64,000 bases of DNA from Naegleria gruberi (lineage: Eukaryota), in NCBI GenBank assembly GCA_000004985.1, contig GG738915.1. One strand, given 5' to 3'. Below, in pieces: positions 15,530 through 54,924 of the stretch (position 1 is its first letter; every line of letters starts with the position of its first letter). The notes under the pieces are model-generated. The model was not told the DNA's origin. It did no database searches and worked only from the letters and a program-made list of their open reading frames with translations. The translations under genes and the position numbers were made by a program.

Positions 15530-16440
15530 GTTTTTTTTTGTTGGAAGAGTAGTACAAGGTTGAACGAATCAAGAAGGTTTCCTCGTTTGTGTGAGTATTT
15601 TCCATGTTGTGCTTACAACATCCATGACTGTGAAGTTCCAAAATCGATGTCTGAATCTTGCAAAATGGGAAGAGATTACAACATTAATTTGTGTAGGTTT
15701 GATGAAAAGGAAAAAAACGCTCAATCTAAATGTTAATTTTCACACAAAAAGGGACAAGATGTTACCCAATATTTATCCCAGGGTTTCAAGTTAAATTCAA
15801 TTTATCTGAGAAATGTCAAATAATTCATATGTTTATATTCTCAACAAGGAGAAATGTAATCATCGATAATAGGTTCAATGCATCGAATAAATCACCACCA
15901 TGAATACATTTTAAAAGTTTTCATCAATCAGACACGCAAATCGAGAATAAATTTTGCAAGAGTGTTTTGTATTTTTGTAATGGCAAGCACCTTTTCAAGA
16001 ATATTACCCAATTGATGATCATAGTAATCAATGGTATCTTAATTGATGTGAGCAAACATTAGAGAATGAGTAATTTACCAACATAAAATCAATGCTATTT
16101 GTTCATTGTTTTCAACGTGTTGACTTATCTGACATGTCAAGCTGCTTAATCATCTTTGTATTGAATTTAAATTGATATGCTCATTGGATATAACCTCAAG
16201 AGGACCCGCCTTCTTCCGTTTGCTGGATTCTCCCTTCCATTCAATATTGGCTATTATTTCCATTCGGATTGTACTAAATCTGCCCTTAATATATTTACCC
16301 AAATTTCTTATTTTCAATGCTAATCCTAGCCCGAGGAAGAGGTCAATCTTTTTGTCAGCTGGAACCTCAATCAATAATAGGAGAGGTAGAATATTCATAT
16401 CCTCACAAAGAGGAGAAGGGCAATCTATAATTGTGCTCTC

Positions 16441-31084: not shown

Positions 31085-31966
31085 TCAATCATCCTGACCA
31101 AAGAATGTATCCATCAAATCATCCAATTCGTCTTTACACTCCTTAAGATCATCATCTATTGTTTCTAGAGATGATGTTAATTCTGAGAGATCATTTGTAG
31201 ATTCGTTTTCATTATCTTGATTGAGAAATTTCCTCAAATGTTTTGTAAATTCGAGGCGTACACTCCTTTTTAGAGAGTACAACTCTTCTTCATCAACAAG
31301 GTCGGCCACTTCATCTTCATCGAGCTCATATTTCTTTCTGTTGTGTTCTCTTTTTTGTTTGATTGATTCCTTTGTAGGATTTGCACCATGTGCATTAACA
31401 ATTAATCCATTCTTTATACTCAACCCACCATTGTCACCTGATTTACTGTTCACTTTTTCTGCCAATTTCTCAAAATCAGTTCTCACTCTATCGGTATCCA
31501 ATCTAATTCCATTGAATTGAGCAAGACTTTGCACACCCAACATTCTTTGAGTTTGAATGTACAGTTGAGCAAAGTTTTTACCAGGTAAAATTCCAGCTCT
31601 ACCAATTGTACTCCAACTTCCAACTCCAAATTTCATTATACCAAGACGAAGTATTCTATTTTCCTGTTCATTCCAACCAGGAGCTTGTGAAAAATTGAAT
31701 AAACTTTTACTTTGTACGACACCTTTTTTCCTTCCTTCTCCTCGGGATGATGTTGACTTCTTTTTAGATGTTGATGTCGTCGATGTTACAAGAGAATCAG
31801 ATGATGACGCTTTTGAAGTAGTGTGAATATTCTTGTCATGATCTGTTAGTGTTGATGAAGATTGTGTTTTTCGATTTGATTTTTCATCGTCTGTAGATTT
31901 TACTTGACGTTTTCTCTTCATTTTTTTAAAATTAGATTTGGCGCTCGAATTAACTACATTTTTCAT
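31085..31966 (-). CDS. Myb/SANT-like domain protein with basic Ser/Thr-rich N-terminal region and acidic C-terminal tail
   Basis: Track ORF 31085..32065. The more likely start is the ATG at 31964-31966 (MKNVVNSSAKSNFKKMKRKRQ...), because the upstream extension overlaps the dynein gene's first exon on the opposite strand. The Myb/SANT-like block is GWNEQENRILRLGIMKFGVGSWSTIGRAGILPGKNFAQLYIQTQRMLG. Confidence 0.65.
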   Translation of the reverse strand: MKNVVNSSAKSNFKKMKRKRQVKSTDDEKSNRKTQSSSTLTDHDKNIHTTSKASSSDSLVTSTTSTSKKKSTSSRGEGRKKGVVQSKSLFNFSQAPGWNEQENRILRLGIMKFGVGSWSTIGRAGILPGKNFAQLYIQTQRMLGVQSLAQFNGIRLDTDRVRTDFEKLAEKVNSKSGDNGGLSIKNGLIVNAHGANPTKESIKQKREHNRKKYELDEDEVADLVDEEELYSLKRSVRLEFTKHLRKFLNQDNENESTNDLSELTSSLETIDDDLKECKDELDDLMDTFFGQDD

Positions 31967-31985
31967 AAAAACAACAACAAGAAAA

Positions 31986-34900
31986 ATGAGAGAAACAAAG
32001 AGATCCCCATCCGCTGCTTCTGCCCTTGATGAGAGTGCAACGGTGCAGGGACTTAGTAGATTCAAACACTTTCATAGTGCAAGTGCTCCCGAATCTTTAG
32101 GAGTAGATAAACTTGAGGTAAGTGAATTCAAAACGAGGAAGTAACCAACAAGCTCTCTTATAGTACAAACCTAAGAATACATACAACGTTAGACCAAAAA
32201 CTACAATACAACCTCAAAAATTAAAGATACCTAAGGAATTACAACAATTTAATCATTTAGACCCATCTAGAAACACAAGTACAAAGAAGAGGTAAGAATA
32301 TCATAACTGAAATCAATTATTAAAAAATGATTTAATTAAACAGAGAAACTAGTACTACAACAACAAAAAGAGCATCAGCACAAGAAAAATCAAGAAAAAC
32401 ATTGGAAGAAAGACCACCAAAACAAGCCAAATATACTACCAGTGTCAGTAGATTGTCTGAATTGAACTCTTTGAATGTTAGTGCTAGAATCGGAGCCCTC
32501 AAACAAATGGATGTTGAAGAAGGAACAATTGATGTAGCTAGTTACCCAAGACTTTTAATTATTAACAAGGAATTTTCGGAAGAGGAAAAGGATATCATCA
32601 TGAGTGGGTATGTATTAATAAGAGGAATTTAATTAATAATTATGAATTGAACAGACAAGAGATTGAAAGCAAGAGCAAATTTCTACCATTAGAATTGTTT
32701 GATGACGAAGAAATATTTGAAAAATTCACTATTGAAGATCTTCTTTCGAATAGCTACATTGTACAGTCTAAGTTTTATACTGGCGCCAAATCAGCTTATG
32801 AAAAATCTTATAAGGTTTGTTTCATATTATTACTAGTGATCTAATCAAAAAACAGTGGGCTCGTTGCAGAGTTCTTGAATATAATCCTGATGAAAGAAGT
32901 TTCCTTATTGAATGGTTAGATTCTCCAAACACAACTGGATATGAAATTACAACAACTGATGAAAACAATGACTCTCCAACCACTACTAATGGCAGAAAAC
33001 AAAAATGGGTAAAAAGATTGAATTTATTAGTTCATGGAGATGAAACTTTTGAATTGAGAATAAGATTTGCACAAATGAGAAGAAAAAAGTTTGAAGAGAA
33101 AATGTTTTATTATCTTCAAATTGACAAGACTATTACTGATGACTTGATAGATATTACCCCTTTTGAAAAACAAATTTATGAAAAAATTTTGAAGCTTGTT
33201 GCAAATGAATCCCAATTCCTTTCTAGGCATGTTCCAGTCATTGAAAAATATGTTGATGAAGCAAAAGAGCATTACAAAATTTCAATGAAAGAGGCTATAT
33301 TTTTGTATTATCTGAACAGTAGAGAAGAATATGAAAAGTATGAAAAATATTTATGGTGCAAAGAAGAGCTAAGGAAAAATAATATGACAGCACCATGTTC
33401 TGGTGTTATTGAGGTACCAGCCTATAACTATCAAGCCATTCACGATATTATTGAACAAAATATCTTTTATACTCACCTTGATTTGATAACAGCAATGCAT
33501 AATATTCACTCTCAATTATTTATTTTGCTTAAAAGCTTAAAGGAAGATGGAAAGAGTATGGACTTGATTACAACACAAAAATGTGATACTCCTTGTGAGT
33601 TAGGATCATTTTTGGAGCTCCAAAGAGATACATTACAATTATCCATGAAAAGAATTAAGGAAGATTGGTGCCAAAAAGTTATTTCGATAGTGCAAAATGA
33701 TCTTGATAGATTTTTCAACTTTTTCGAAGATGATATTGAAAGATTCGAAAGCTCTAGAATGAAGAAGTTCTTGAGATTGACCAATTTCGTTCTTTCAGCT
33801 CAGTTAAGAGATTATGTTTTTGATGAACTTCACAAGTTGAGAGACTTTATAATACCTTATAGATACAGAGGATCGGATCATTTTGATGCCAATGAAGTTT
33901 CTGGATTTGAACCTTTATTTATTATCAAGATTGTGGAGAAAATTGAAAATGGAGAATCTAAGATTGCATTCGATCCTCCACTCGAATCTGTATTAGATGG
34001 CTTACGACAAATATTTTATGGAGTGCTGGAGGAAACCAATTTTATTCCAGGTATAGGAGAGACTCTCTTCCCATTATTGACTCTTAAGCCAGAACAATAT
34101 TGTATAAATAACTTAGAACTAAGATTAGAAAAAGACACAAAAGGTTTATGGAAAGATATTCAAGAAGTAATTACTTCCAACTTTAGAGAACCAGAAATGT
34201 TGCTCTCCTTATATAAGGGATATGAACATTGCTTAAAGTTGGATCCAGTCGCGTTTGCTACAGAATTTTATAATGAACATGTTGGCAAAACAGAAATGTC
34301 AAAACTTCTTTCAATCTTTAGAGAAGAATTGGCAAGACTTAAAAGTGATTCAGAAGAAGTGTATAACATTTCAACTGATAATGTCAATTTCAACTTATTG
34401 CGAGTAGATTGCAGTGGTATCAAAAACTCACTATATTTGAGAACCGATGGTACTGCAAAAGAGTTGATGAAATTAATATCAAAATGGAGTACTGAAGAGA
34501 GTAGTAAAATTACTCAATCTTTCCGAGATGTATATAGCAAAGTTCAAATCATACCTCAAACTGCTGAAGAACTGGACTCTTTAAAGAAGTACTTAACAGA
34601 TTGCACAAAGGAAATTGAAAGATTACAATCTCAATTCGCAACAGTCAAATCAAGTGTCCATTTACTCTCAGATTTTTCATTCAACCTCGACATGGATGAT
34701 TTTACAGTATTTGTAGATACTCATTCATGGCCAAAGAAGGTTTATGGACTTCTTGAGGATAGTACTATTAGACTTGAAGAAGACAAGAGAAAATTCATGG
34801 ATGAATTACAAAGAGATATCAATAATCTTCTCAGCAACTTGGATTTATATGAAAAGATTATTGAACGATTTGCTGTTTTCGATGATTTAGAAAAGACAGA

Positions 34901-37900
34901 CCAATACTATGAAAAGGTAAAGGATATGGAATCTAAATTGGAGGAAGCAAAGAAAAATTCCGAATTGTATAATAATCGTGAAAGAATGTTTAATATGAAC
35001 ACAACAGAATTTTCCAAACTGAAGGACTTGGAGAAGAACTTTAAACCTTACTTTGACTTATGGAGAATTGCTTATGAAAAGGCACAAAACTTTCCAAAAT
35101 GGAATGAAGGCACATTCATGAATTTGGATGCCAAGTTTATTGATGAATCATTAAGTATGTGGCAATCTACATTGAAAAATTTAGAAAAGAACTTGCAACC
35201 AAAGGACGAAACTGCAAGAATTATTACAAGACAAGTGAAGAAGGAGGTTGTAGCATTCTTACTTCACATGCCACTTATCAATGCCTTGAGAAAGGATGGT
35301 CTTAGACAAAGACATTGGCAGAAAATTGCAAAACTTCCACTTGAATTTGGAAAATCCACAGCCCAATTGGATATTGAAAGTATTAATATCATGAACTTGG
35401 GAGACTTTACAAAGATTGGTTTCGAAGAAAAACCAATTTTAGAAAAGATTATTGATATTTCTACATTGGCCGAGAAAGAAGCAGAAATTTCAAAGAACCT
35501 CGAAAAAATGTACTCTGCTTGGAAGAATGTCAATTTCCATCTTGAGAAATACGGTATTACATACAAACTTGTTGAATTGGATGAATTACAAGTCCTTCTC
35601 GATGAACAAATTGTTTTAACTCAAGGTATGAGAGCTTCTCCTTACGTAAAGGAACTTGAGACTGAAGTTATTGCTTGGGAAAACAAATTATTAGAAAGAC
35701 AAGATATAATGACCGAATGGATTAAGTGTCAAGTTGCTTACTTGTATTTGGAACCAATCTTCAGTTCTCAAGATATATCAGCACAGCTTCCTGATGAAGC
35801 AACCAAATTCGGTATGGTTGACAAAATGTGGAAGAATGTTATGGAAGTTACCAATAAGGTCAAAGTTGTCGCTCAAGTTGTTTCTGATGAAAATATGAGA
35901 GATAACTTTGAAACAGCCAACAAGAGATTGGAGCAAATCCATTTTGGTTTGAAACAATATTTGGAAACCAAAAGAAGAGCCTTCCCAAGATTTTACTTTT
36001 TATCAGATGATGAATTGTTGGAAATCCTTTCTGAAACTAAGGATCCACTCAGAGTTCAACCCCACTTGAAAAAGTGTTTCGAAGGTATTGAAAGGTTAGA
36101 GTTTGACAAGGAAGGAAAAATCGTTGCCATGCTCAGTAAACAAGGTGAGCGTATTCCATTCCAAAAGCATGTAATACCAGCAGAAAAGAATGGCAGAGTT
36201 GAGTTGTGGTTGTTAGAAATTGAAAATGAAATGAAGGGTAGTTTGAGACACTCTATTGAACAATCCATCAATGCATATGCTGCTATTGCTGGTAATATTG
36301 ACAAGAGAGGTCAATGGATTCTTGCATGGCCTGGTCAAGTGGTATTGACTGTAAGTCAACTTTTCTGGACAAGAGAAGTAGAAGAATCTATCAAAGCACA
36401 AGGTGTTAAAGGAGTTCAAAGATATTACTCCAAGATGACCAAACAACAAAAATCTCTTATTGAACTTGTAAGAGGAGAAAATTTAACTGCTTTGCAAAGT
36501 ATCACACTTGGTGCAATGGTCGTTATTGATGTTCACGCAAGAGATGTTGTTGCTGGTTTGGTGAAAGAGGCAGTCGGAGATATTTCAGACTTTGAATGGC
36601 AAAGTCAGCTCAGATATTATTGGGAAGATGTTAAAGATATCAAGGATGGAAAGAATCAAAACCAAATTGTTGTTAGACAAGTTACTGCTGAAATTAACTA
36701 TGGATACGAATATTTGGGTAATCAAGAAAGACTTGTCATTACACCTCTTACTGACAGATGCTACAGAACACTTACAGGTGCTCTCCAATTATTTAAGGGC
36801 GGTGCTCCTGAGGGTCCTGCTGGTACAGGTAAAACTGAAACTACAAAAGATTTGGCTAAGGCTATCGCTAAACATTGTGTAGTTTACAACTGTTCAGATG
36901 ATCTTACCTATGAGTCTATGGCTCAATTCTTTAGAGGTTTGGCATCAAGTGGTGCTTGGTCATGTTTTGACGAATTTAACAGAATTGAATTGGATGTCCT
37001 TTCTGTTGTTGCCCAACAAATTCAAACTATCCAACTTGCTGTAGCTAGTAGAGCCACCAGATTCTTCTTTGAAAATATGGAAATTAACATGAATCCAACT
37101 TGTGCTATTTTCATTACAATGAATCCTGGTTATGCTGGAAGATCTGAACTTCCTGATAACTTGAAAGCTCTCTTCCGTCCAGTCGCTATGATGGTTCCTG
37201 ATTATGCCTTGATTGCAGAAATTTCATTGTTTTCTTATGGATTTTTGGAAGGTCGTAAACTGGCTAGAAAGATTGTTTCTACTTATAGATTATGTAGTGA
37301 ACAATTGTCATCCCAAGATCACTACGATTATGGTATGAGAGCTGTTAAAGCAGTATTGGTAAGAGCAGGTTCATTAAAGAGACAATTTCCAGATCTTAAC
37401 GAAGAACAACTCATGTTAAGAGCATTGAATGACGTAAATCTTCCAAAATTCGTTTCTGCTGATATCCCATTGTTCAACGGTATCATCAAGGATTTGTTCC
37501 CAACTACAGAACATCAAAAGGTTGACTACTCTGCTCTTGAAAACGCCCTTATTCAAACATGTGCTGAAATGAATCTTCAACCTGTTCCTTACTTTATTCA
37601 AAAGATTATCCAACTTTATGAAATGATTATTGTAAGACACGGTTTGATGCTTGTAGGTTTCCCAATGTCAGGTAAAACAGCTTCCTATATTGTTTTAAAG
37701 TCTGCTTTGGAGAAATTAGGAGAAAAGATCAATCTAAGAGTCTTATCACCAAAGGCAGTTTACGGTGGAAATCTATACGGTTATAGAGATACAAAGACCA
37801 AAGACTGGAAAGATGGTGTTCTTGCTCTTCACTTCCAAAAGTTGAGTACACTTGCAGAAAAGGAAAGAAAATGGCTCATGTGTGACGGTCCTGTTGATGC

Positions 37901-40900
37901 TATTTGGATCGAATCTATGAACACAGTTTTGGATGACAACAAGAAGCTTTGTTTAACATCTGGTCAAATTATCAAAATGGGTGAAAACATGAACATGATG
38001 TTTGAAGTCCAAGATTTAGCTGCTGCTTCGCCTGCAACAGTTTCCAGATGTGGTATGGTTTATTTGGAAGCCGAAAAGCTTGGTTCTTGGGAGCCTTACC
38101 TAGCAAGTTGGCTGAGCAGTAAGGAATTCCCTCAAGCTCTTAGAGAATCAAAAGATTTTGAAGAAGTGACAGAATTATTTAAAACATTATTCTCCACTTT
38201 CATTCCTCCTGCTATCAAAATTTTCAAGTCTCACTTTATGGCCAAAGCATATGTTAGAGTTAAAAGTGATGCCATGTTGGTGAATTCATTGATTAACATT
38301 TTGCAAAGCTTGATGGATGAATTTGCAGATCCAAAAGTGATCCAAAATTACATTAAGGACAAGTCAATTATTCTTGAATGCCTTTTCCAATTTGCTTTAA
38401 TTTGGTCAGTTGGTATTGTTTCTGTTGATAGAGTTAAATTTGATCAACTTTACAGAAACATGCTGGAAGAAAGGGCAAGAAATAAGGTCTACAAATTCCA
38501 AATACCAATGCCAGAAAAGCCAAACACACTCGTTTTCGACTTTGTGTTTGACAAGAAGAGTAGAAAATGGGTTGAATGGACTGCCTCAGAATATGCTCCT
38601 AAATTTGCTGTTTCACCAACAGAAGAATTTAGAAATATTATTGTCCCAACAATGGACACTATTAGATTCCAATTCATTCTTAAAACACTTCTCGACCACG
38701 GTAAGCAACCATTATTTGTTGGCCCAACAGGTACTGGTAAAAGTGAATATGTAAAACAATTTTTACTTAAACTTGGAGCTGGTTCAAGTGAAGAAAAGGA
38801 ACAAAATAACGAACCAAAGTCAAACTTCCTTCCTGCCTTTATCAATTTTTCAGCCACCACTACACCAAGTCTTATTCAAGATATTTTGGAATCCAAGCTC
38901 ACAAGAAGAAAGCAAGGATATATTGGTCCACCAATAGGAAAGAAGACAATTATTTTTGTCGATGACCTTAACTTGCCAACATTGGATGATTATGGTGCAC
39001 AACCAACCATTGAATTATTGAGAGAATGGCAAGACAGAGGAGGCTGGCATGAAAAATTCAGCAAGCAAGCAGCCTTTACACACGTAGTTGATGTATTGTT
39101 TGTTTGTGCTATGGGTCCTCCTGGAGGTGGTAGAAACGAAGTAACTCCAAGATTTATTCGTCACTTCAATGTTATTGGTCTTACCTCATTTGACAACCAA
39201 ACATTGACCACCATTTTCTCAGATATTATGGATTGGTTCCTCTCATCCAATAGCATTAATACTATCAGTAAGATTTTGGCTAGACAAATCGTTGTTGGAT
39301 CCATCAATTTATTTAATAATGTAATTGAGCAATTCAGACCAACACCAGAAAAATCTCACTATACTTTTAACTTGAGAGATTTATCAAAGATTTTCCAAGG
39401 TGTTTGCAGTGTTGGTCCAAGACTTGATGGATCAGAATTGGAGAAGGTATCTCTAGTCAAGATTTGGGCCCATGAGGCCACAAGAGTTTTCCACGATAGA
39501 TTGATTAATGAGCAAGACAGAGAGAGTTTCTACCAATTACTTGATAAGGAACTTCAAATTGGTGAAATCAAATATATCATTGAAGAAACACCTTTTGACT
39601 ATAGAAATACTCTCTTCACTTCTTTAACTCATGATTCTTGCGAAAGATTCAAGGAAGTTGTCTTGAACAAGACCTCCAATAATCCAAAGGTTGCTGATAT
39701 TTCCAAACTACATAATATCTTGTCATCTAAATTGGAAATTTACAATGATTCACACTCAAAGATGGATCTTGTATTATTCAACTTTGCTATTGAACATATT
39801 GTTAGAATTGTAAGAATTATAACTCAACCTGGTGGTAATGCTCTCCTTATTGGTGTGGGTGGCAGTGGTAGACAAAGTTTAACCAAACTAGCTGCTTTTG
39901 CTGCTGAATACAAATTGTTTGGTATTCAATTAACAAGATCTTTCACTGTTTCTGAATGGAAAGATAAGATGAAAGAATTGTTGATTAGTGTTGGTGGTGC
40001 CAAGAAAACTCAAACTGTCTTTTTATTCAATGATAACCAAATCAAGTATCAAGAATTTTTAGAAGATATTAGCAGTATTCTTAACACTGGTGAAATTCCT
40101 AACCTTTTCGATAGAGATGAATATAAGGATATTTGTGAAAGTCTGAGAGCACATGCAAGAAATGAAAACAAAGGACAAACACCAGAAGAATTATACAACT
40201 TCTTTGTTGATAGATGTAAAGAATGTTTGCACATTGTTCTTTGCATGAGTCCAGTTGGTGAAAATTTGAGAAATTATTTGAGAATGTTCCCTTCATTGGT
40301 AAATTGTTGTAACATTGATTGGTTCAGCTCTTGGCCAGACCAAGCCCTTCATGCTGTAGCTCAAAAGTTTATCAAGAGCATTAACGAAGTAACAGATGAA
40401 GAATTGGATAATAATGTAGAAATACCAAAGGATGATGCATTCGAAAAAGATTTTGACAAGTATGTCGATATATGTGCCTACTTCCACAATAGTTCCACCG
40501 AGCTTTCTAAGCAATTCTTATTCAAGATGAAGAGACATAACTATGTTACACCAACAACTTATCTTGGTCTATTGAAGAACTTCTCCTCACTTGTAAAAGA
40601 AAAGAGAACCGAGTTGCAAACTTTGAGAGGAAAATTCGAGTTGGGTCTTCAAAGAATTGCTGAAACCGATAAGGATGTTAATGAAATGCAAAAAGAATTG
40701 GAAATTTTGCAACCAAACTTGATTGAACTTTCCAAACAAAATGAAGAATTATCCAAGAAGATTGAAATTGAATCTCAAAATGCAAACGAGAAGGCTAAAA
40801 AGATTGAAATTGAACAAGAAGAAATCAACGCACAAGTTGCTAAGAATGAACAAGACAAGGTATATTGTATGGAAGAATTAGCTCAGGCTGAACCAATTTG

Positions 40901-43900
40901 GATTGAAGCCCAACAAAAGGTCAAAGATATCAGTACTGCCCAAATTGCGGAAGTCAGAGGTATGCAAGCTCCTCCAGAAGGTGTTAAAATGGTCCTTAAA
41001 GCTATCTGTATTATGAAGGGTGAAAAAGTTAAAACCATTGATGATGGTCTTGGTAACAAGTCTAAAGATTGGTGGGGTGCATCCAAGGAAATGATGTCAA
41101 GAAAGGATTTCTTAAAATATATTAAGAATTTTGATATGGGAGCATTGAATCAAGAAATTGTTGGTACTCTTACACCTATTTTGGCAGAAATGGATGTTGA
41201 AAAAATCAAACGTTCCAGTGCTGCTGCCTTTGCCCTTAACGAATGGTTGAATGCCCTAGTTAAATACTTTAGGGTTAACAGTGTTGTAGAACCAAAGAGA
41301 CTTGCATTGCAAGAAGCTGAACAAAAGTGTGCTGAAGCCGCCAGATATCTTGCTGAAAAGAAGAGGGAATTGGCTGAAATTCAAGGAATGATTGCACTCA
41401 AAGAAACTGAAAGAAAAGAATGTGAAGCAAAGAAGAATCAACTTGAACATGAATACCAACTTGTCAGTGTAAAGTTAGAAAGAGCTACAAAACTCATTGG
41501 TTTATTGGAAGGAGAAAAATTGAGATGGCAAGAAACATTAGCTAAAATTATGGAACAACAAACATGTATTAATGGAGACGTTATTTTAGCCTCAGGTATT
41601 ATTTCCTACCTTGGAGCCTTTACTTCTGAGTACAGAAGAAAGATTCTCAAGAAGTGGTCCAACAAATTGACCCAACATGGTATCAAATTCTCAGAAAATT
41701 TCACACTTTCAACAACTTTGGCTGAATCTATGGAAGTTAGAAATTGGATTATCAAGGAAGGTTTACCATCAGATGACTTTTCAGTTGAAAATGCTACTAT
41801 TGTCAAGAGAACTACCAATATTTGGCCACTGTTCATTGATCCACAAGGTCAAGCCATGGCCTGGATTAAGGAGAAGGAAAAACAACAAAAGAAAGATGCT
41901 GATTCCTTGTTAATCATTCAAATGTCCAACCCCAGTCTTATTAAGAGTTTGGAAAAGGCCATTACTCAAGGAACTACAACTATTGTTGAAGGTGTTGGAG
42001 AAGAATTAGATCCAGCATTGGAACCACTCTTAACTCAAAGAACTTATTACATTGGAGGTGTAAAGTATATCAATCTTAGTGATACTCCAACAATTTATAA
42101 TGATAACTTTAAACTCTATTTGGTTACTAGTCTTTCAAACCCTCACTATCTCCCTGAAGTTTCAACTAAAGTTCAAATTATTAACTTTATGATTACACCA
42201 AATGGTTTGGAAGAGCAATTGCTTGCTATTGTTGTCAAGATTGAAGAAAAGAAATTGGAAAGTGAAAAGAACAATTTGGCTGTACAGAATGCTAAATATC
42301 AAGAACAATTGAAGCATTACCAAGATAAGATTTTGCAATTGCTTGTTGAAACAACAAAGGAAAAATGTTGGATGATGACACTGTCATTAATACCCTCTCA
42401 TCATCAAAGCAAACCTCAAGAAAAATTGAACAAAAACAAATTGAAACAAAGAAGACTGAAAAGGATATTGATACCAAGAGAAACCTTTACCGACCAGTTG
42501 CTGAAAATGCAAGTACCTTATTCTTTGCTATTTGTGAATTGCCAAACGTTGATCCAATGTATCAATATAGTTTGAACTGGTACCAAGATTTGTTTACCCA
42601 ATGTGTAGTTGAATTGCCTCACGAAGAAAATAGATCCACCATTCAAAAGATTGAACAACTTAGAGACTTCTTTACTCATCAAATGTATACCAGAGTATGT
42701 AGATCATTGTTCCAGAAGGACAAGCTACTCTTCTCGTTATTATTGTGTATTCAATTGATGAGAAAGAAGAGCTTGATTGATCATGAAGAGTTGAAATTCT
42801 TACTTACAGGTACTAGCTCTGTCGTCAACTCTGATGAAACCACAAGAAAATTGCCAGAATGGATCACTCAGAACATGTACAATGAGTTATGTCAAATTGA
42901 TGGAATGTCAAGTGTCTTTAAGAACTTCAAACAAGAATTTTTCAATCACCTTGAAGCTTGGAAGAAGGTTTATGATTCATCCAAGCCTAATGAAGAACCA
43001 TATCCAGATAAATGGAACAACCTCTCAATATTACAAAAGATGATGGTTCTTAGAATTATCAGACCAGACAAACTTCTTCCAGCAGTTGAAACCTTTGTGG
43101 AAAAGAATATGGATAAGAGATTTATTGAGCCAAGTCAATTCAATTTGAAGGTTTCTTACATGGAATCTACTCCTGTAAAGCCACTCATATTTATTTTGTC
43201 ACCTGGTGTGGATCCTATGGAAAATCTTCGTAAATTTGCTGACCAAGAAGGTGTAGCCTTGAAGAGTTTGTCACTTGGTCAAGGTCAAGAAGAATTTGCT
43301 ATTGAAATGATTAACCAAGGAAGCTTCCAAGGAAATTGGGTTGTTTTACAAAACTGTCACGTTTTGCTTTCTTTCTTACCAAAGTTAGAAAAGATCATTG
43401 ATGATTTCGCCAGAAATGAAAATAAGCTAGCTGCAAATTATAGATTGTGGCTCACAAGTATGCCTAGTGAAAAATTCCCAGTCAGCGTACTTCAAAGAGG
43501 TGTAAAAATTACTAATGAGCCTCCTAAAGGTTTGAGAGCAAACCTCTTACAATCTTGGAATAGCGATCCTATCAATGATGCAAAATACTTTACTGGTTGT
43601 AAGAAGAGTAGGGAATTTAAGAAGTTATTGTTCGGTTTGACATTCTTCCATTCCTTGGTTCAGGAGAGAAGAACATTTGGTCCACTTGGTTGGAATATTA
43701 GATATGAATTTAACGATTCTGATTTGAACATCTCCTTGAAGCAACTTCAAATGTTTTTGAATGGAAAGGATTCAAATGTTCCTTTCAAGGCCCTTACCTA
43801 TTTAACTGGTGAATGTAATTATGGTGGTAGAGTTACAGATGACCATGATAGAAGAACTCTTATGGCAATTTTATCTGACTTCTATAATGAGGAAATTATT

Positions 43901-45049
43901 GAGGATGGTTACCAACTTTCACCTTCCGGTATTTACACTGTTCCAAATGGAGATAAGAAACATAGTGAATATATTCAAACAATCGAAAAATTCCCATCAA
44001 GCGAAACTCCAGAAGTATTTGGTTTGCACGAAAACGCTACCATTAGTAAGGATCAAACTGAGTCTAAACTAATGTTTGATGCATTACTTACCACTCAACA
44101 AAATAGTGCTCCTGAAACCAATGATGAAGATGACATTAATGAAAATTCTCATGAAACTGAAGTACTTTACGAATTAGCAGCAGATATCTTGACTAAACTC
44201 CCTGACAACTTTATTATTGAAGGAGATGGTGGCGCAGAGGCCAAGTTCAAGGTTGACTATCACGAAAGTATGAACACTGTATTTGTACAAGAGTTAATTA
44301 GATTTAACAAACTTTTGAATGCTATTAGAAACAGTCTTCAACAATTACAACTTGCATTGAAAGGTCTCACAGTCATGAGTAGTGATTTGGAACAATTGAG
44401 CAAGTCTCTTTCAAATGGTAAGGTACCTCTTGTATGGAGCAAGGCCAGTTATCCTTCTAGAAAACCTCTCAGAACATATATCCAAGATTTGATTAAGAGA
44501 ATTGAATTCTTTAATAATTGGTTTATTCATGGTAAACCATCAGTGTATTGGTTGAGTGGTTTCTACTTTACCCAATCATTCTTGACAGGTGTAAAGCAAA
44601 ACTTTGCCAGAAAGAATAAGATTGCTATTGACCAAATTGATTTTGAATTTGAAATTTTGGACAAGTACTATGAAGAAAACATTTCCTTGCCAGAACCAGA
44701 ATGTGGTTGCTATGTTTATGGATTGTTCTTGGAAGGTGCTGCTTGGGATAGAAAGAAGAAGTGTTTGACAGATCCAAGACCAAAACAATTGTTTGATGAA
44801 ATGCCAATAATTTGGTTCAAACCTGTAGATCGTAGTGTTGAACAAACAGAACCAACAAGTTCAGAGGTTAAAACCAAATCTAATACCTATGTTTCACCAC
44901 TCTACAGAACTAGTGAAAGAAGAGGTACCCTCACCACAACTGGTCACTCGACTAACTTTGTGATGAGTATCAAGTTGCCAATGGCCTCAGATAATAATGA
45001 AAAGTATTGGATTAAGAGAGGATGTGCCTTACTTTGCCAACTTGATTAA
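31986..45049 (+). CDS. Dynein heavy chain, about 4270 aa; class undetermined, with size and tail length suggesting an axonemal or IFT-type motor; 5 exons plus one apparent -1 frameshift
   Basis: The main exon is 32856..45049; this corresponds to track ORFs 32817..42575 and 42365..45049. AAA1 P-loop is GPAGTGKTETTKDLAKA and Walker B is SCFDEFNR. AAA2 is GFPMSGKTAS, AAA3 is GPTGTGKSEY and AAA4 is GVGGSGRQSL. The coiled-coil stalk, AAA5/6 and the C-terminal domain are present. The upstream exons E3 32344..32607 (donor GTATGT) and E4 32655..32814 (donor GTTTGT, 41-nt intron to acceptor AACAG at 32855) are phase-consistent. The TACTAG pseudo-acceptor at 32836 was rejected because it creates a stop. 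E1 31986..32117 (MRETKRSPSAAS...KLE|GTAAGT) and E2 32227..32291 are tentative. Around 42357-42365 the reading frame shifts by 1 nt inside an A-run (see findings). Confidence 0.8.
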
Positions 45050-45129: not shown

Positions 45130-46503
45130 TTAGGCCCAAATAGCAATAATTGCCATAGATGCAAAACCGAGTGCCATAAGAATGAATCTAGACAACTTTA
45201 AAAACTTATTCTTAGGTTGATGGATTGCAATTTCCATCAAAGCAACATATAAGAATGCTCCAGCTGCAATAGATAAAAGTGTACCTTGAGCAACTTTCCA
45301 GCTGTTATTTTCTAGTGCTTGTTCATTTTGGACTGAATGAATAATAATCAAACCAATTGCAATACCAACAGGAACAGAAGCAGCATATAAGAATAAAAGA
45401 GCCAGAGCAACGAAAATATTCTTACAGCCCTTTTCAACAATAGCTCCCAAAGAGAATGCTTCAATAAATTGGTGCGCCACAATGGCAGCAAAGATACTCC
45501 ACATATTTCCCAAATCAGTTTCAGCACCAAAACCCAATCCAATGAAAATACTGTGAGTTGATAAAGCCAACCATAAAACTATAGCTGTAAGTACGAGAGG
45601 AACACCAGATTTGTGATTAGTTTCAAATAACATTTGAGTAGCTTCATGGTGAGCACATCCTGTATGGTCTCCATGACCGTGACCATGTTCATGATGCACA
45701 TGATGTTGATCACATACGGTTGGTTCATTGGTGGTTGTCTTTTCAATTTGTGGTGTTTCTGGGTTTTCCAAATCACCCTCCTCTTCATTTTTAACTTCAA
45801 TGTCATCACTATCAACAGGTGAGCTTGGTGTTTCTTCCTTATGAGGTTTAACCATTTCAATTTCATCCACACAACCAATTGTTGATATTGAAGGTGGTGG
45901 GGATTTAGCTCCATTGGATGTAAGTGTTTGATGCTCCTTATGGTCATGACCATGTGAATGATCACAATTACTGTGTGAATGAGAGTGTCCGTGGGAATGA
46001 CCATGAGAGTGGCCATGGTCATGTTCGCCTGCCTTAAACCATTTCGATAAGAATGCCAACAAGACAAATTCCAATCCGTACAACACCAAAAATGCAAGAC
46101 ACATTGTAAGAGGCCCTATTGGATAGGCAGAACTTCTACTATCTCCCAAACTTTCCAATCCCTCTGAGATTAACTCTCCACCTTCAGCCATCATGTGTAA
46201 AATACCAACACTCAATAAAACTCCTCCTGCAAACCCATTACATTGATCAATGGCAATGCTTATATATCCTGAATTAATTCTCTTTTTAAAATATTTCACT
46301 CTCGAAAATAGTATAGGAACCAATGAAATGAGAAAGCTGCCAATTAGCAAGCCAAATAAGGTTCCCAATTTGGCTCCCAACAATGTTGCCTCCACTGATG
46401 GATCTATTGATGTAGAATTATTCATTGTTTCGTTATCAGTACTCTCCTGAAGTACATTTAAGAGTGGAAATGTGCCACTTTCTATTGGAATCTGTTCATA
46501 CAT
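45130..46503 (-). CDS. ZIP-family (SLC39-like) zinc/iron permease with two histidine-rich loops
   Basis: 457-aa single ORF with multiple transmembrane helices. The His-rich cytosolic loop is HDHGHSHGHSHGHSHSHSNCDHSHGHDH, and a second is HHVHHEHGHGHGDHTGCAHHE. The ZIP signature helix is AIVAHQFIEAFSLGAIV. Confidence 0.8.
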   Translation of the reverse strand: MYEQIPIESGTFPLLNVLQESTDNETMNNSTSIDPSVEATLLGAKLGTLFGLLIGSFLISLVPILFSRVKYFKKRINSGYISIAIDQCNGFAGGVLLSVGILHMMAEGGELISEGLESLGDSRSSAYPIGPLTMCLAFLVLYGLEFVLLAFLSKWFKAGEHDHGHSHGHSHGHSHSHSNCDHSHGHDHKEHQTLTSNGAKSPPPSISTIGCVDEIEMVKPHKEETPSSPVDSDDIEVKNEEEGDLENPETPQIEKTTTNEPTVCDQHHVHHEHGHGHGDHTGCAHHEATQMLFETNHKSGVPLVLTAIVLWLALSTHSIFIGLGFGAETDLGNMWSIFAAIVAHQFIEAFSLGAIVEKGCKNIFVALALLFLYAASVPVGIAIGLIIIHSVQNEQALENNSWKVAQGTLLSIAAGAFLYVALMEIAIHQPKNKFLKLSRFILMALGFASMAIIAIWA

Positions 46504-47973: not shown

Positions 47974-48537
47974 GAATTATTTTCACATGAGAATTAGTTT
48001 GATGATTGGATTCAGGACTAACAATAACATATTATAGGAGAAGATTGCTACCAAACAATCTAATTTTGATATTATGGAAGGATGACAGGTATCTGTAGTT
48101 TCGCTCAATTGTATTAAACAGTTGTTGAAATTTCAATATCGTGCTTGAATCAACTTAAAGTTTGGGATTGAAGACGAAAGAGCTCCAAGCTTCAACAGCA
48201 GCTGGTTAACATTTTCAAATTGAATTGTCTCTCATAGAAATGATAATAAACCAGCGTGACGTGCTTCTTCTTTCCAACCTCTGATTTATATTTAGAAATC
48301 CATTAAAAAAATTAATAATTTTTGTTGTGGTGTTTTTAGAGTTGGAGGAATCATCAATAACACACAACACTACAATAAGTGCAATTTTATCATCATCATA
48401 CGTGTAGTTTGTGCTAGTCAATTTGTGTCCTGATCATAATATAACAACAACAACAATATTATCATCAGCATTAACAACATAATCTAGGAAACTAATAATA
48501 GTATTTTAATAGCATCATCACCAACAATAATAACAAG

Positions 48538-51500
48538 ATGAAGAATCGTATGTCTGTTGTGGATATCCGTTGCATTGTCGCGGAGTTGAGAGAACAATTG
48601 ATTGGTATGCGTTTGGCCAATCTTTATGACATTAACAAAAAGACTTATCTACTTAAATTTGCAAAAACTGATGAAAAGATTGTTGTTCTCATCGAATCAG
48701 GTATTAGAATTCATAGTACTGCTTTCGAAAGAGATAAATCAAAGATGCCAAGTCCATTTGTTTTAAAGGTAGGTTGTGATTTTCAAAGAAAATTCTTACA
48801 CAAATTATTTTCATCATGAAATAGATGAGAAAACATATTAGAACAAGGAGATTGGAAAAGTTGGAACAATTGGGAGTTGATCGTGTTGTTGATTTCACTT
48901 TCGGAGCTGAAGAAAAGGCATACCATCTTATAGTTGAATTCTTTGCAAAGGGTAACGTCGTTCTGACAGATTACCAATATAAAATCATTAGTATTTTACG
49001 TACACATAGTAAGGAAGCTGAGGCTGGTTTGTTTGCTGTGGGAGAAACATATCCAATTACAACTCGTTTACAATCTGATGGAATTTCAAAGCCAACTCTT
49101 GCACAAACAATCAAGACAGCTATAGAAAAGGAAAGAAATGCAGCCCTTGCACCAACAGAGGAAAATCCAGAAAATCCACAACCAACTCAAAAGAAGAAAC
49201 AACAAAAGAAAGCTCCAGCAGTTCCAACATTGACAGTGAAAAATTTATTGAATAATTATTTGGATTATGGTACAGGTTTTGTTGAACATTGTCTTTTGAC
49301 TGCAGATGTACTTGCATCTAATTTGAATTTACTTGATAATGCACATCCTGATACACTCAAATTAATTTCCGAGGTTGACAATGTCATTGCTTCATCCAAC
49401 GTTGAAACTCCAATTTTGGATAAGCTTGTATCTGCATTTAAACAAGTGGACGATTTCATTATGAGGATTAAGACTGAAAAACAAAGAGGTTATATTCTAC
49501 TGAAAGAAATTGTTCAACAACAAGTTTTGGATGAAGTTACTGTGGAAAATCCATTCCTTCCACCAAAGAAAGAACCAACCGAAAACGGTGAACCATCCTC
49601 AGAGGAACCTGTTGTTGAGCCTGAGATTGTATTGAACGATTTGCAACTCAAACAGATTGAGCTCATGAAGCAAGAAAAGAGGTTGTCAATTAAGAGAGAT
49701 CAATACGATGACTTTACACCATTTCTTTTTGAACAAGTCAGAAGAAAGATTCCTGCCGATAAGAATCAAATCAAAGTCATTGAATTTGACTCATTCGACC
49801 GATCTGCCGATGAGTTTTTCTCTGCCATTGAAGCTAAAAAGATTGAATCTCAAAAGTCAAGTATTGAAAATACAGTTGAAAAGAAGATGAGCAAGGTTAA
49901 AAGAGAACAAGAACTCAAATTGCAAGAATTGCAAGCCTCTTTCGATAAGTATGAAACAATTGCCACCTTGATTGAAACCCACTATGAGATTGTTGATCAA
50001 GCTATCCAAGTTATTTGTTCTGCTCTTGCCCAATCTCAATCATGGGAAACCATCAAGCAAATTATTAAGGAACACAGAGATGTGGATCCAATTGCTGCCA
50101 TGATTCACAAACTTAAATTGGAATCCAGTCAAATTACCGTTACCCTTCCTCCTCCATCTATCGATGACGATGATGAAGACGAATTTGAATATGAAGAATC
50201 AGATGAAGAAAATGATGATGAAGACGAAGAGAGTGATGATGAAGAAAAGAAGGAAAAGAAATCAGACAAGAAAAAGAAGGAAGAACCAATGAGAATTGAT
50301 ATTGACATTTCCTTGACAGCCCACGCCAATGCTGCCAAATACTACTCTCTCAGAAAGAAATCTGGAGAAAATAAGGAAAAGGCAGCTTTTGCTTCCAAGA
50401 AGGCCATTAAAAAGACCGAACAAAAGACTCTCGAATCTGCTAAAAAGTCTCAAATCAAATCAGAAATTACAATTAGAAGAAAGAGATTCTGGTTTGAAAA
50501 GTTCTATTGGTTTATCACCTCTGAGAATTATCTTGTTCTTGGTGGTCGTGATGCTCAACAAAACGAATTGGTTGTCAAGAGATATATGAGAAAGGGTGAT
50601 ATTTACATTCACGCTGATGTACATGGTGCTTCATCTTGTATCATTAAGAATCCAACGGGTGAACCAATTCCACCGCTCTCACTTCAAGAGGCTGGTATGT
50701 TTTGTGTTTGCAGAAGTGTTGCTTGGGACAATAAGGTAATGTCAAGTGCTTATTGGGTTTATGACCATCAAGTATCCAAGACAGCTCCAACTGGTGAATA
50801 TTTGACTGTTGGTAGTTTCATGATTCGTGGTAAGAAGAATTTCTTGCCTCCATCTCCTTTGGTTATGGGCTTTGCAGTAATGTTCAAAGTTGATGAATCA
50901 TGTATTCCAAATCACATTCAAGAGAGAAAACCAAGAATGTCTATAGAGGAAGCCTCTGAATATCTGACAAAGGTATCAGACTCTTTTGCTAATGATTATT
51001 ATGATAATGAATCGACCACTACTGGTACATTGGAGGAGGAAACTTCTACTGAAAAGAAGGAAGAAACCACCGTAACTACCACTACCTCTGCCAATGAAAC
51101 CACTGAAGAAGAGACAGATCCAGAAGTTAATCACAGCTCCAAAGTAACTAATGAAGAAATTCTTGAAATTGAAGAGGAAGATAATCAAAATGAGGAAGAA
51201 GAAAAAACTGAAGGAAATGATAAGAAGAGAGCTCTCTCTGCCAAGGAAAAGAAAATTTTACAACGTTTAAAGAAGAAGGGTATGACCGAACAAGCAGCCA
51301 GAGAGCTCATCATTTCTGGTCAAGCGACTGAAGATTCCAAATCTCAAAAAGAAGATGCCAAGAAACAAGACGAAGAAACCGAGGATAGTGAAAATACTGA
51401 GAATGACAAGTCAACTCTTCCAACCCACAAACCAAAGGGTATGAAGAGAGGTAAATGGAAGAAGTTAAAGACCAAGTATGCTGACCAAGACGAAGAAGAA

Positions 51501-52034
51501 AGACAAGTAATGATTGAATTAATTGGTAACAAGCCAAAGGAAAGACCAAAAGAAGATGAAATGAAGCAAGTACAAAAGAAGAAGGAAGAAGAACAACGTA
51601 AGAAGAAACAAGAACAAGCAGAAATTAAGAAATTCCTTGCCGATGAAAATATTCCTTTCATGGATGATGAAGATAAGGAAAAGCTTACTGAAATCGACAG
51701 TTTGACAGGTCAACCAAGAGATGACGATATTTTCTTATTTGCCATTCCAGTTTGTGCTCCATATACTTGCCTCAAGAATTATACCTATAAGGTCAAACTC
51801 GTTCCAGCAGGTACAAACACAAAGAAAGGTAAGGTTGGTAAGGAAGCTATTGCAATCATGAGATCAGAATCCAAGAACTTGCCAATGGTTGAGGCTTGCA
51901 TCAAATCAATTGATGAAGCTGATATTGGTGGTTGTTTGGTTGGTAATTGTAGAATTGCCTCATCAAGGAAGAGTAACTTCAATCCTCAAAAGAAGAAGAA
52001 GAAACCAACCTCTTCCTCTTCAAAGGACGAATAG
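48538..52034 (+). CDS. NEMF: NEMF / Tae2 / RqcH-family ribosome quality-control protein (NFACT-N, NFACT-R, NFACT-C domains), 2 exons
   Basis: E1 is 48538..48768 (MKNRMSVVDIRCIVAELREQLIGMRLANLYDINKKTYLL...VLK|GTAGGT). The intron is 48769..48824 (56 nt). E2 is 48825..52034 (MRKHIRTRRLEKLEQLGVDRVVDFTFGAEEKAYHLIVEFFAKGNVVLTDY...). The N-terminus closely parallels the NEMF/Caliban N-terminus. The NFACT-R block is DIYIHADVHGASSCIIKNP...AWDNKV. About 1146 aa, with an acidic/Lys-rich insert. Confidence 0.85.
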
Positions 52035-52228
52035 CCCTGTATTGTAATAAAATAATATATTTTGTGTAAATGATTCTTCATGAGTAGTAACTACTTTCAG
52101 TTATTTCCAGCAAAGCATGCCAACTATCCCTTATTATCTATTCGAAAGAAGGAACTTTGAATACAAAATCTCTCTTATTTTTTAAGGAACTAATTTTGGC
52201 GCCATCCTTAAAAACTTTTTCAAATAAA

Positions 52229-53134
52229 ATGATGCAACGAAGAACTCCCTCATCCAATACAACAACGACTACAACTGCTTCTAAACCCCTCTCACAGAGA
52301 TCATCTTCTACAACCCGAATCACATCTGGAGGAGGCCTTTCTTCAAGACAACCCTCATCAACGCCGAGTAGTCAGAACACTCCGCTCAATACAAGAGGAA
52401 CAAGGCTAACTTCAGCCTCATCATCAACGAGTAGTGGCAGCACAACAGCAAGGAGAGCTAATTCAACCAATGCAAGAGGAACTACGACAACGAAATCATC
52501 AGGAAGCAATGCAACGAATGGTATTCCAATGGAGTCAAAACCTAAAAAACTCTCCCAAGAACGATATGATAAACATAAAACAGCAAATCCATTCACTGCC
52601 AAGAATAAATTCAAAACAACTTTCGGAGGAGTTTACGAAGCTGGTGGAATACCTTGTAGAATACATCACACTGCTGCACATATGCATTTGAGCTGGGAAA
52701 AACCACTTCCTGACATACCTTATGATCCTCTCATTCTCACTGTGTCTGATGGTTTGAGAGAAACTGATCACCCTTATATTTTCATTGTACAAAAGGCATT
52801 TGAAGAGATGTGTAAAGCTGAGGAAGCTGCAGAAAAGATTATTCCACTATTGAGACAAATAACATCCTTCATCAGAATGGCACTGCAGAGTAAGGAGAAT
52901 GTGATATTTGAAAATGCATTGTCTGCTGTTCAACATTTGACTGCCTGTGTTGGAGATGCCATCATTCCACACTTACCTCTTGTGCTTGTACAGATCAGTA
53001 AGAAGACATTTGATAAGAAATATGCAAATAAGATCATGGATATACTGCAAAATATTGAGCAATCATGCGAAAACTCTGCAGAAGTTGTCAAATTAATTAA
53101 GGCAAAAGTGCCAACCTATGTAAATATTCGCTAG
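52229..53134 (+). CDS. PACRG: PACRG (parkin co-regulated gene) homolog, axonemal microtubule inner-junction protein
   Basis: The track ORF begins at TTG 52157; the first ATG is at 52229 (MMQRRTP...). The N-terminus is Ser/Thr-rich. The conserved PACRG core is GGVYEAGGIPCRIHHTAAHMHLSWEKPLPDIPYDPLILTVSDGLRETDHPYIFIVQKAFEEM...KIIPLLRQITSFIRMALQSKENVIFENALSAVQHL. Confidence 0.75.
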   Translation: MMQRRTPSSNTTTTTTASKPLSQRSSSTTRITSGGGLSSRQPSSTPSSQNTPLNTRGTRLTSASSSTSSGSTTARRANSTNARGTTTTKSSGSNATNGIPMESKPKKLSQERYDKHKTANPFTAKNKFKTTFGGVYEAGGIPCRIHHTAAHMHLSWEKPLPDIPYDPLILTVSDGLRETDHPYIFIVQKAFEEMCKAEEAAEKIIPLLRQITSFIRMALQSKENVIFENALSAVQHLTACVGDAIIPHLPLVLVQISKKTFDKKYANKIMDILQNIEQSCENSAEVVKLIKAKVPTYVNIR

Positions 53135-53340
53135 TAGTAAATCAGTTTTTAAGAATTAGAATTGCCAAAGTTAATTTATTTAAAAACCAATTTTAGCTTT
53201 TGTAGAAACGAAATTATTATGAAGAGCTTTTACAAAAATTCAATGAGAACTGTTGTAAATGTTCAAATAAACAAAGCCTATAAAACATTACTAGTATTCT
53301 TAATAATATTAAGAATACTATTAATACTAAGTAAACTTGC

Positions 53341-54924
53341 TTAACAATCCGTTAGTTGCAATTGTGGGAAAATGTCCTTAAGTGAACTTGATGAAGAACA
53401 AGTAGAAAACCTATTGCCCATCAAAAGTAGTACTTTTAGTTTAGAAAATACTGGCTTTTTAAATAGGGGGATAGCAATCGTAGGCAGGAAATTGGAGGTT
53501 AAATTCAACACTTCTAAATTCTCAAATTTTCCTTCTGATAAGAAGTTGATACCTCTTGTCTTGATTCTATTAAACGAAAGATTCAATTCCTGTAATGATT
53601 TCAAAGTATCACAAGCTAAATTCTCACATCCAAAACATGTGATACAATTTCTATTCAGCTTGAGCTTTTTCAGATTTGAAAACATTGGTGATTGAAATAC
53701 TACACAACCTTCATCTCCAAAGAAATTACCTTCCAACGATAATTCACTAAGATTATTCATTATTCCTTCAGAGAGGTAAATCATTGCAGAACTATTGATT
53801 TTGGCATCAGCTATTTTCAGAGTTCGGATTTCTTTCAAACCTTTTGAAATAAAACTTGCTCCTTCGTATCCAAGTGGATTTCCTGTCATGTCCAAATGAG
53901 TTATACTCTCAAAATTCCCAATATTCTTGCATGCTGATCCAGGTATATTGTTTCCAACAATAATTAATTTCCTCATACTTGTATTTTTCTGACTGCACAA
54001 TGATTCAAAACCTTCTTCAATATTGTTAAATGATAGATCGAGATATTCCATATTCTGGAGACAACTAGATAAGTATTTAGCACCCTCTGAGCTGATACAA
54101 TTATGAGAAAGATCCAGTATTTTCAAGTTAGTCAGATTTGATAATTCTTTGCACGAGTCAAGTTCAATTGCACTGGCAGTTACTGAGAGAGAATAAACAT
54201 TGGAAAGGGTATTATTTCTGGCAAGATTGGAAAATCCATAATCACTGATCATGCAATGATCCAGTTTAAGTTCCTGCAAAAATGGTTTTGGAGTTCGTGA
54301 AAATTCCCTACATGCAAAATCTGTAATCCTCAATCCATGAATTTCTAATTTTCTGATATTATTTAAATTACCCATTACTGTTTCAATGTATGCATTTTCT
54401 TGTTCATTGAAAATATTAATAAATCCACAGTCATGCAAACTCAGCTCTTGAATGTTTGTGAAATGTCTACAAACACTTGCTACCAGTACACAATAGTAAT
54501 TTGTATTCTTAACCATACCAGTAATGGTATCATGGTAAAGGCTAGTTGCTGTTTGTGCTGAAGCATTAAACCACTTTTTACAAACCATTGCACACTTGGC
54601 CAATGATTCAAACTCTAAATACGAAAAAATCTCCATATAAAACAATTCATCTGGCACTTCATTCAAATGAGATAATATCAAACTTTGTTTTTTTCGTTTA
54701 GAATCTTGCACCACAACAGACCTATCTTTCAATTCTTCTTTCATTTCTCTATGCTCTCTCTTTCTTTTCAATTGCTTTGTGTTCATTTTTCTTTCGGACG
54801 AAGAAGCATTACAACGTGAGGCTTGTTTTAAATTTGGAATCTCGTCAATATTTTTTGGATCAAAGGTAAAAACGTTGTTGGCTATTTGCGGAGTTCGGTG
54901 TACTAGCTTCATTCTGATCATCAC
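53341..54924 (-). CDS. F-box / leucine-rich-repeat (RNI-like LRR) protein
   Basis: 527-aa ORF. The F-box-like segment is LSHLNEVPDELFYMEIFSYLEFESLAKCAMVCKKWFNAS. About 12 RNI-type LRRs follow, of the form LxxLxLxxNxIxxxGxxxL. Confidence 0.75.
   Translation of the reverse strand: MMIRMKLVHRTPQIANNVFTFDPKNIDEIPNLKQASRCNASSSERKMNTKQLKRKREHREMKEELKDRSVVVQDSKRKKQSLILSHLNEVPDELFYMEIFSYLEFESLAKCAMVCKKWFNASAQTATSLYHDTITGMVKNTNYYCVLVASVCRHFTNIQELSLHDCGFINIFNEQENAYIETVMGNLNNIRKLEIHGLRITDFACREFSRTPKPFLQELKLDHCMISDYGFSNLARNNTLSNVYSLSVTASAIELDSCKELSNLTNLKILDLSHNCISSEGAKYLSSCLQNMEYLDLSFNNIEEGFESLCSQKNTSMRKLIIVGNNIPGSACKNIGNFESITHLDMTGNPLGYEGASFISKGLKEIRTLKIADAKINSSAMIYLSEGIMNNLSELSLEGNFFGDEGCVVFQSPMFSNLKKLKLNRNCITCFGCENLACDTLKSLQELNLSFNRIKTRGINFLSEGKFENLEVLNLTSNFLPTIAIPLFKKPVFSKLKVLLLMGNRFSTCSSSSSLKDIFPQLQLTDC

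Follow-up and report, generated by a model that had tools for sequence, protein, structure and literature searches.

A one-base deficit in an A run of a putative inner-arm dynein heavy-chain gene is probably a consensus error in the Naegleria gruberi draft assembly

A 64,000-nucleotide (nt) stretch of Naegleria gruberi DNA (contig GG738915.1 of assembly GCA_000004985.1; hereafter the window) contains a gene for a putative inner-arm axonemal dynein heavy chain, the reading frame of which is broken by a shift into the -1 frame. We read this break as a base-calling error in the consensus of the draft assembly rather than as a feature of the DNA, with a probability of about 0.65. On this reading, the gene would be an intact, ordinary, single-copy inner-arm dynein heavy-chain gene, and the deposited whole-genome shotgun consensus, obtained by Sanger sequencing, would miscount a homopolymer, giving AAAAA at positions 42361-42365 for a genomic AAAAAA, so that the open reading frame (ORF) seems to switch into the -1 frame. 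In the mRNA, the sequence would be ...GAA ACA ACA AAG GAA AAA ATG TTG GAT... (ETTKEKMLDDD) and would specify one motor of ~4290 amino acids (aa), without frameshifting, splicing at the site or splitting of the gene.

In the deposited sequence, the plus strand near 42340-42380 reads ttg ctt gtt gaa aca aca aag gaa aaa tgt tgg atg atg aca. With frame 0 defined by codon starts at positions divisible by 3, this frame extends from 32856 to a TGA at 42573-42575, and its ORF comprises 3252 aa. At the junction, frame 0 reads ...DKILQLLVETTKEK (L L V E T T K E K C W M M T) and passes into 69 unrelated residues, which contain CWMMTLSLIPSHHQSK..., before it reaches the TGA. The -1 frame has a TGA at 42347-42349, opens at 42350 with N N K G K M L D D D T V I N T L S S S K Q T S, reads NNKGKMLDDDTVINTLSSSKQTS...LYRPVAENASTLFF... 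and remains open for 899 codons to 45049. The homology to dyneins passes into this frame at 42365 and continues up to the stop codon at 45047-45049; the peptide MLDDDTVINTLSSSK belongs to the C-terminal 894 residues. The upstream and downstream ORFs overlap by 211 nt. An open frame of 894 codons in DNA of 35% G+C, with E-values such as those given below, is not due to chance. A first-pass annotation of this DNA had proposed that the gene is divided between two frames at this place, and the division was indeed found as described, the ORFs of 3252 and 894 aa being reproduced and the homology crossing the change of frame.

Restoring one A yields a coding sequence (CDS) of 4292 codons, counted from an ATG at 31986 in our own gene model, in which the start codon and the first ~82 codons are uncertain; the Naegleria fowleri orthologue is annotated at 4287 aa. 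This result supports the earlier proposal that a single nucleotide is lacking from the A run of an otherwise intact dynein gene of ~4270 aa. Pfam profiles detect DHC_N2, AAA_6, Dynein_AAA_lid, AAA_7, AAA_lid_1, AAA_8, MT and AAA_9 in the upstream frame, at the end of which AAA_9 (the AAA5 module) is interrupted at profile position 200 of 222, and Dynein_heavy (the D6 P-loop), AAA_lid_11 and Dynein_C in the downstream frame. Across both frames, the motor architecture is complete, with linker, AAA1-AAA6, a stalk with the microtubule-binding domain, and the C-terminal domain. The closest solved structures, matched over 2800-3100 residues with 2100-2300 bits, are Chlamydomonas inner-arm chains and human DNAH7/3/12/1, and the outer-arm chains lie well below these inner-arm matches in the same PDB search (1230-1400 bits). 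When repaired, the 170-aa segment around the junction aligns from end to end with the inner-arm heavy chains of axoneme structures (E ~1e-38). These PDB match scores, rather than a phylogeny, indicate that the product is a single-headed inner-arm axonemal dynein heavy chain of ~4290 aa, in the class of DNAH7 and the Chlamydomonas inner-arm chains.

The same full domain order is found in the Chlamydomonas chains 8glv_JG, 8glv_Kg and DHC2 (8glv_Lc) and in human DNAH7, DNAH3, DNAH12 and DNAH1. The predicted protein does not differ from these inner-arm chains once one A is added, whereas the deposited DNA breaks the frame within the coiled-coil hairpin of AAA5, which we take to be the buttress (or strut). 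It is an ordinary member of the inner-arm dynein heavy-chain family, and the only family character that the deposited sequence lacks is an uninterrupted frame, which the one added A restores.

The position of the missing base follows from a comparison with orthologous loci, which were fetched via the neighbouring ZIP gene as a synteny anchor. Four orthologous sequences were obtained, namely N. fowleri VFQX01000023.1, an independent assembly of N. fowleri (Logan SRR29240419), N. lovaniensis PYSW02000021.1 (4158 aa) and Willaertia magna JBEGDK010000039.1 (4387 aa). All four read ...VETTKEKMLDDD... at the junction in a single frame (VETT/SKEKMLDDD), and the 170-aa junction segment aligns with each of them in one frame, without gaps and with 88-89% identity. 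The orthologue codons are GAA ACA ACA AAA/AAG GAG AAA ATG CTT GAT (E T T K E K M L D), compared with GAA ACA ACA AAG GAA AAA -TG TTG GAT in the window, which is one base short. Judging from these alignments, exactly one A is missing from the run at 42361-42365 and TTKEKMLDDD is the native reading, because the orthologue codons are in frame with E. The orthologous dynein genes lie in the same neighbourhood and encode proteins of 73-83% identity, but unlike the window they carry GAG AAA ATG in frame at the site. A synonymous GAA specific to N. gruberi, where the relatives have GAG, would make the intact run an A6; in the relatives, the run consists of four A's.

The first-pass annotation had left two sites open, an extra A in acaacaaAgg or in ggaaaaAtg. 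The second of these was confirmed, with the run at 42361-42365 and the reading TTKEKMLDDD, and the one listed first, which would give TTKGKMLDDD, is excluded, since all orthologues have E instead of G at this position, though G is commoner in distant dyneins.

The two halves of the gene are equally well preserved. After repair, the protein aligns with that of N. fowleri in a single high-scoring segment pair (HSP) of 3295 aa with 83% identity and with that of Willaertia in a single HSP of 2940 aa, and over the 9.9 kb that could be compared the gene therefore has exactly one lesion. The ratio of nonsynonymous to synonymous substitution rates (dN/dS) relative to N. fowleri, calculated according to Nei-Gojobori and with saturated dS, is 0.042 upstream and 0.068 downstream of the break. 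In a three-way alignment, the changes unique to the window and to N. fowleri number 105 and 83 upstream (ratio 1.27) and 61 and 51 downstream (1.20), i.e. the rate has not accelerated in the window lineage past the break. Purifying selection has thus acted alike on both sides of the break, and it follows from this equal constraint that the event at 42361-42365 is either evolutionarily instantaneous or absent from the DNA. An old, decayed (unitary) pseudogene, which had been raised as an alternative, is contradicted by the single lesion, the downstream dN/dS of 0.068 and the absence of lineage acceleration, and is excluded.

An intron at the junction can also be excluded. The introns of the window are many and short (41-67 nt, GTAAGT/GTATGT...YAG), and every other split ORF examined turned out to be interrupted by canonical short introns, including those of an ABC transporter, two kinases, a NIT-cyclase gene and the pairs 9320/9822 and 59721/60261. 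The sole GT...AG pair at the junction, 42345-42359, spans 15 nt, which is too short in comparison with the local introns and, as a multiple of 3, would not restore the frame; moreover, the alignment is contiguous on both sides and leaves no spare sequence.

It remains to weigh an error in the consensus against a change in the DNA. Apart from the single base missing from this homopolymer, the 12.9-kb gene is conserved and intact, as would be typical of an artefact. The shortening of a homopolymer by 1 nt is the usual form of an indel miscall, and the residual indels of a draft Sanger consensus concentrate in thinly covered stretches. The genome of N. gruberi NEG-M was Sanger-sequenced and comprises 40.9 Mb with 35% G+C (PMC9928731); the window, with ~35% G+C, agrees with the value tabulated for the genome. 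A precedent is provided by the very same gene in the PacBio assembly of N. lovaniensis, which has three 1-nt deletions relative to N. fowleri. These lie in PYSW02000021.1 at ~20193-20250, 16669-16678 and 14945-14951, two of them in short A runs and one at an alignment edge, and the gene has, in addition, one in-frame 3-nt insertion relative to N. fowleri. The frame changes in N. lovaniensis are likely to be long-read indel errors, and the annotated product of 4158 aa presumably skirts the three deletions.

However, several points speak against an error. A Sanger consensus is not systematically error-prone at homopolymers of 5-6 nt. The window itself appears clean, in that it contains no N, that no other unexplained frame break was found among its split ORFs examined, and that the ZIP gene, a 322-aa ORF and an NFACT gene are colinear with N. 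fowleri without any frameshift. Furthermore, N. gruberi has been reported to be heterozygous (PMC9928731), which means that a real variant allele may have entered the consensus. Lastly, contig, metagenome and protein searches turned up no second N. gruberi sequence that covers 42361-42365, and it is for this reason that the choice between error and mutation rests on indirect arguments.

The 894-aa ORF, the ZIP gene and the 322-aa ORF had no exact match in a contig index that does not include the NCBI genome of N. gruberi. A DNA pattern scan of metagenomes that allowed A4-A7 at the run gave 0 matches, and a protein-guided metagenome scan recovered only relatives at <=45% identity. A 700-aa query spanning the junction, run against 5.8 billion proteins, found none with >45% identity, the listed matches being of <=1225 aa, so that long dyneins are maybe unindexed there; a search of representative proteins returned the N. 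lovaniensis protein as the only one of the genus. A search of the literature library at hand found no paper joining N. gruberi, dynein heavy chain and frameshift.

The alternative that survives best is a real and very recent mutation in NEG-M, which is possible but clearly the less probable of the two. In that case, replication slippage would have removed one A from an A6 run; the deletion might be confined to one allele, if the genome is heterozygous or polyploid, or it might be fixed in the axenic clone. According to our own model, the mutant product would have 3467 aa (3398 native residues and 69 out-of-frame residues) and would be a dead motor, truncated before the end of AAA5 and with neither AAA6 nor the C-terminal domain; without one of its single-headed inner-arm dyneins, a flagellum would beat less well but would still beat. 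Chlamydomonas mutants without single inner-arm dyneins still assemble flagella, and NEG-M has been kept as axenic amoebae in which flagellar genes are not under selection, both of which count in favour of a real mutation. So do the facts that among natural indels, too, the loss of 1 nt from an A6 run is the commonest and that the remaining window shows no signs of poor assembly, as well as the reported heterozygosity of N. gruberi (PMC9928731). On the other hand, the 12.9 kb contain only this one lesion, and the 894 codons downstream form an open frame with a dN/dS of 0.068 in an unaccelerated lineage; accordingly, any real mutation would have to be extremely young. In a polyploid genome, a new allele would, as we infer, be represented by a minority of the reads and would be unlikely to win the consensus. 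In addition, by a rough estimate of our own, consensus errors in a ~8x draft should outnumber fixed new frameshifts in conserved genes several-fold.

Recoding of the mRNA is very improbable. Programmed -1 ribosomal frameshifting or transcriptional slippage would have to take place at G_GAA_AAA (42359-42365), where tRNA-Lys would slip from AAA to AAA and translation would go on to ATG TTG GAT. If the A-site tRNA-Lys slipped by -1 on A_AAA, the product would have exactly the native ...EKMLDDD..., and a hairpin with an 8-bp stem begins 6 nt past the A run. The site resembles known programmed -1 sites in the frame of its downstream ORF, in its A-rich run and in having a hairpin 6 nt further on, but it differs from them in its non-canonical heptamer, in the lack of significance of its hairpin and in the absence of the arrangement from the orthologues. 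The heptamer does not conform to X_XXY_YYZ, and the P-site GAA would have to re-pair with GGA, with a central mismatch. At other places in this frame of the dynein gene, chance has produced 11 canonical heptamers. The hairpin is weak (minimum free energy -10.4 kcal/mol, z = -1.57, with 15 of 200 shuffled sequences as stable) and has no counterpart in the orthologues, which use TCT/TCG/TCC serine codons at its position; it is judged to be incidental. None of the four orthologous sequences shifts frame at the site, and hence the frameshift arrangement is not conserved. Besides the run at the site, the dynein gene contains 30 runs of A5 and five of A6. Five A's are too few for a polymerase to slip efficiently, and a stoichiometric structural motor is a poor candidate for recoding of low efficiency. 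Programmed frameshifting, which the first-pass annotation had offered as an alternative, therefore finds no support in the heptamer, the hairpin or the in-frame orthologues. It is just as improbable that the A5 run is real in NEG-M and that a full-length motor is nevertheless made by a low-level -1 slip of tRNA-Lys, perhaps aided by the DDD/SSS hairpin at 42371-42405; if true, this would amount to recoding that arose recently, and in this species alone, in a nuclear motor gene of a eukaryote.

Least probable of all is a truly split motor, in which a chain ending in the AAA5 hairpin and an 894-aa chain starting at the ATG at 42365 would be made separately, as in Ustilago maydis, where the dynein motor is assembled from two gene products: the -1 frame does have an ATG exactly at the junction, but this is the conserved internal Met of ...EKMLDDD in all orthologues and not a new start codon, the ORFs overlap by the 211 nt mentioned above and leave neither an intergenic region nor room for a separate transcription unit, an internal AUG ~10 kb into a eukaryotic mRNA would stay unused, and the upstream product would carry the 69 junk codons. 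Dyn1 and Dyn2 of U. maydis are separate genes on different chromosomes, with the split before the stalk; the likeness is confined to a motor encoded in two ORFs, whereas here the frames overlap in one exon and the break comes after the stalk, in AAA5. A scan of 42000-42800 for promoters and terminators found nothing above the level of shuffled sequences, but it was a scan of the bacterial type and has little bearing on a eukaryote. Even taken together, recoding and a split gene account for only a sliver of the probability.

The break in the dynein gene involves no new biology and no new mechanism. It matters chiefly for annotation: in the N. gruberi reference, the model of one inner-arm dynein heavy chain is probably broken, truncated or artificially spliced, and a faulty model of this kind skews inventories of dyneins as well as comparative work on the flagellar apparatus. 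The annotation can be corrected by one A at 42361-42365, which gives ...TTKEKMLDDD. If the base should truly be missing in NEG-M, the gene would be a small but concrete case of flagellar gene loss in an axenic strain of an amoeboflagellate. Wider interest would attach only to the improbable case of recoding, if that were true.

The features of the dynein gene and its convergent neighbour are compiled in Table 1. Colinearity with the N. lovaniensis protein, from exon 2 onward, confirmed three of the four introns at the 5' end of the dynein gene. The predicted first exon overlaps the 5' end of a minus-strand ORF (31085-32071) over 31986-32071, and the first ~82 residues of the model are unmatched in the N. 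lovaniensis protein, for which reason the true start of either the dynein gene or the minus-strand ORF probably differs from the model.

Table 1. Coordinates of the dynein heavy-chain gene, its parts and the adjoining ZIP gene in the window
Feature	Position	Strand	Basis or remarks
Putative inner-arm axonemal dynein heavy-chain gene	31986..45049	+	Ab initio model, Pfam domains, PDB matches
Predicted intron 1, 46 nt, GTAAGT...TATAG	32118..32163	+	Ab initio model
Intron 2, 52 nt, GTAAGA...ACAG	32292..32343	+	Junction KKR|ETSTTT contiguous in N. lovaniensis protein
Intron 3, 47 nt, GTATGT...ACAG	32608..32654	+	Junction IIMSG|QEIESK contiguous in N. lovaniensis protein
Intron 4, 41 nt, GTTTGT...ACAG	32815..32855	+	Junction SYK|WARCR matches AYRWAPCR of N. 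lovaniensis protein
Last exon, part in frame 0, ending ...VETTKEK	32856..42365	+	Linker, AAA1-AAA4, stalk/microtubule-binding domain and most of AAA5 up to the coiled-coil hairpin; part of the 3295-aa HSP with N. fowleri
Lesion, A5 where A6 is needed, GAA AAA [A]TG	42361..42365	+	Orthologue codons
Remaining CDS in the -1 frame, 894 codons from MLDDD	42365..45049	+	End of AAA5, AAA6, its lid and C-terminal domain; 81% identity to N. fowleri
Out-of-frame tail, 69 codons (CWMMTLSLIPS...), then TGA	42366..42575	+	No dynein similarity
Weak RNA hairpin after the A run	42366..42411	+	8-bp stem of 42371-42378 with 42398-42405, GAT GAT GA (DDD) x TC ATC ATC (SSS)
ZIP zinc-transporter gene, 457-aa ORF, convergent	45130..46503	-	Syntenic in N. 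fowleri, N. lovaniensis and Willaertia

The neighbourhood of the dynein gene is widely shared among the relatives. The gene lies tail to tail with the ZIP gene in both assemblies of N. fowleri, in N. lovaniensis and in Willaertia, and the ZIP protein is 60% identical to that of N. lovaniensis, 58% to that of N. fowleri and 43% to that of Willaertia magna. Both an ORF of the 320-aa class and the NFACT gene adjoin as well in N. fowleri and N. lovaniensis, whereas the Willaertia locus lacks these two neighbours. Four ORFs of the window are identical to the N. gruberi proteins EFC37692.1, EFC37682.1, EFC37729.1 and EFC37730.1, which are all encoded on a single contig of 260,018 bp, and the NFACT exon is identical to EFC37693.1. 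The ZIP ORF had no match among the N. gruberi proteins of the protein collection, and the ZIP gene, as far as such matches can tell, appears to be missing from the NEG-M annotation.

A metagenome contig from ENA (ERZ929261, run ERR1078381) is 99.0% identical to 48506-54364 of the window and stops 6 kb short of the site in the dynein gene. Its NFACT protein is identical, and it has insertions of 13 nt and 18 nt at ~52175 and ~52523, in or near a PACRG-like gene. This degree of similarity points to a second N. gruberi-like strain or haplotype in public data. Other ENA fragments match the window at 5444-6943 and at 58443-59249.

Three further genes of the window may be mentioned. On the minus strand, 13282-15568 holds a gene with a NIT (nitrate/nitrite-sensing) domain and an adenylate/guanylate cyclase catalytic domain, interrupted by three short introns. 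A plus-strand frame of 1037 codons (2-3115), which runs off the start of the window, combines a DFP domain (phosphopantothenate-cysteine ligase/decarboxylase type) with a class-I methyltransferase domain, and could represent either a fusion protein or two adjacent genes without an intervening stop codon. A 570-aa ORF at 18007-19719 on the plus strand contains a Zn(2)-Cys(6) binuclear cluster domain of the fungal type (E = 2e-7), here found outside the fungi.

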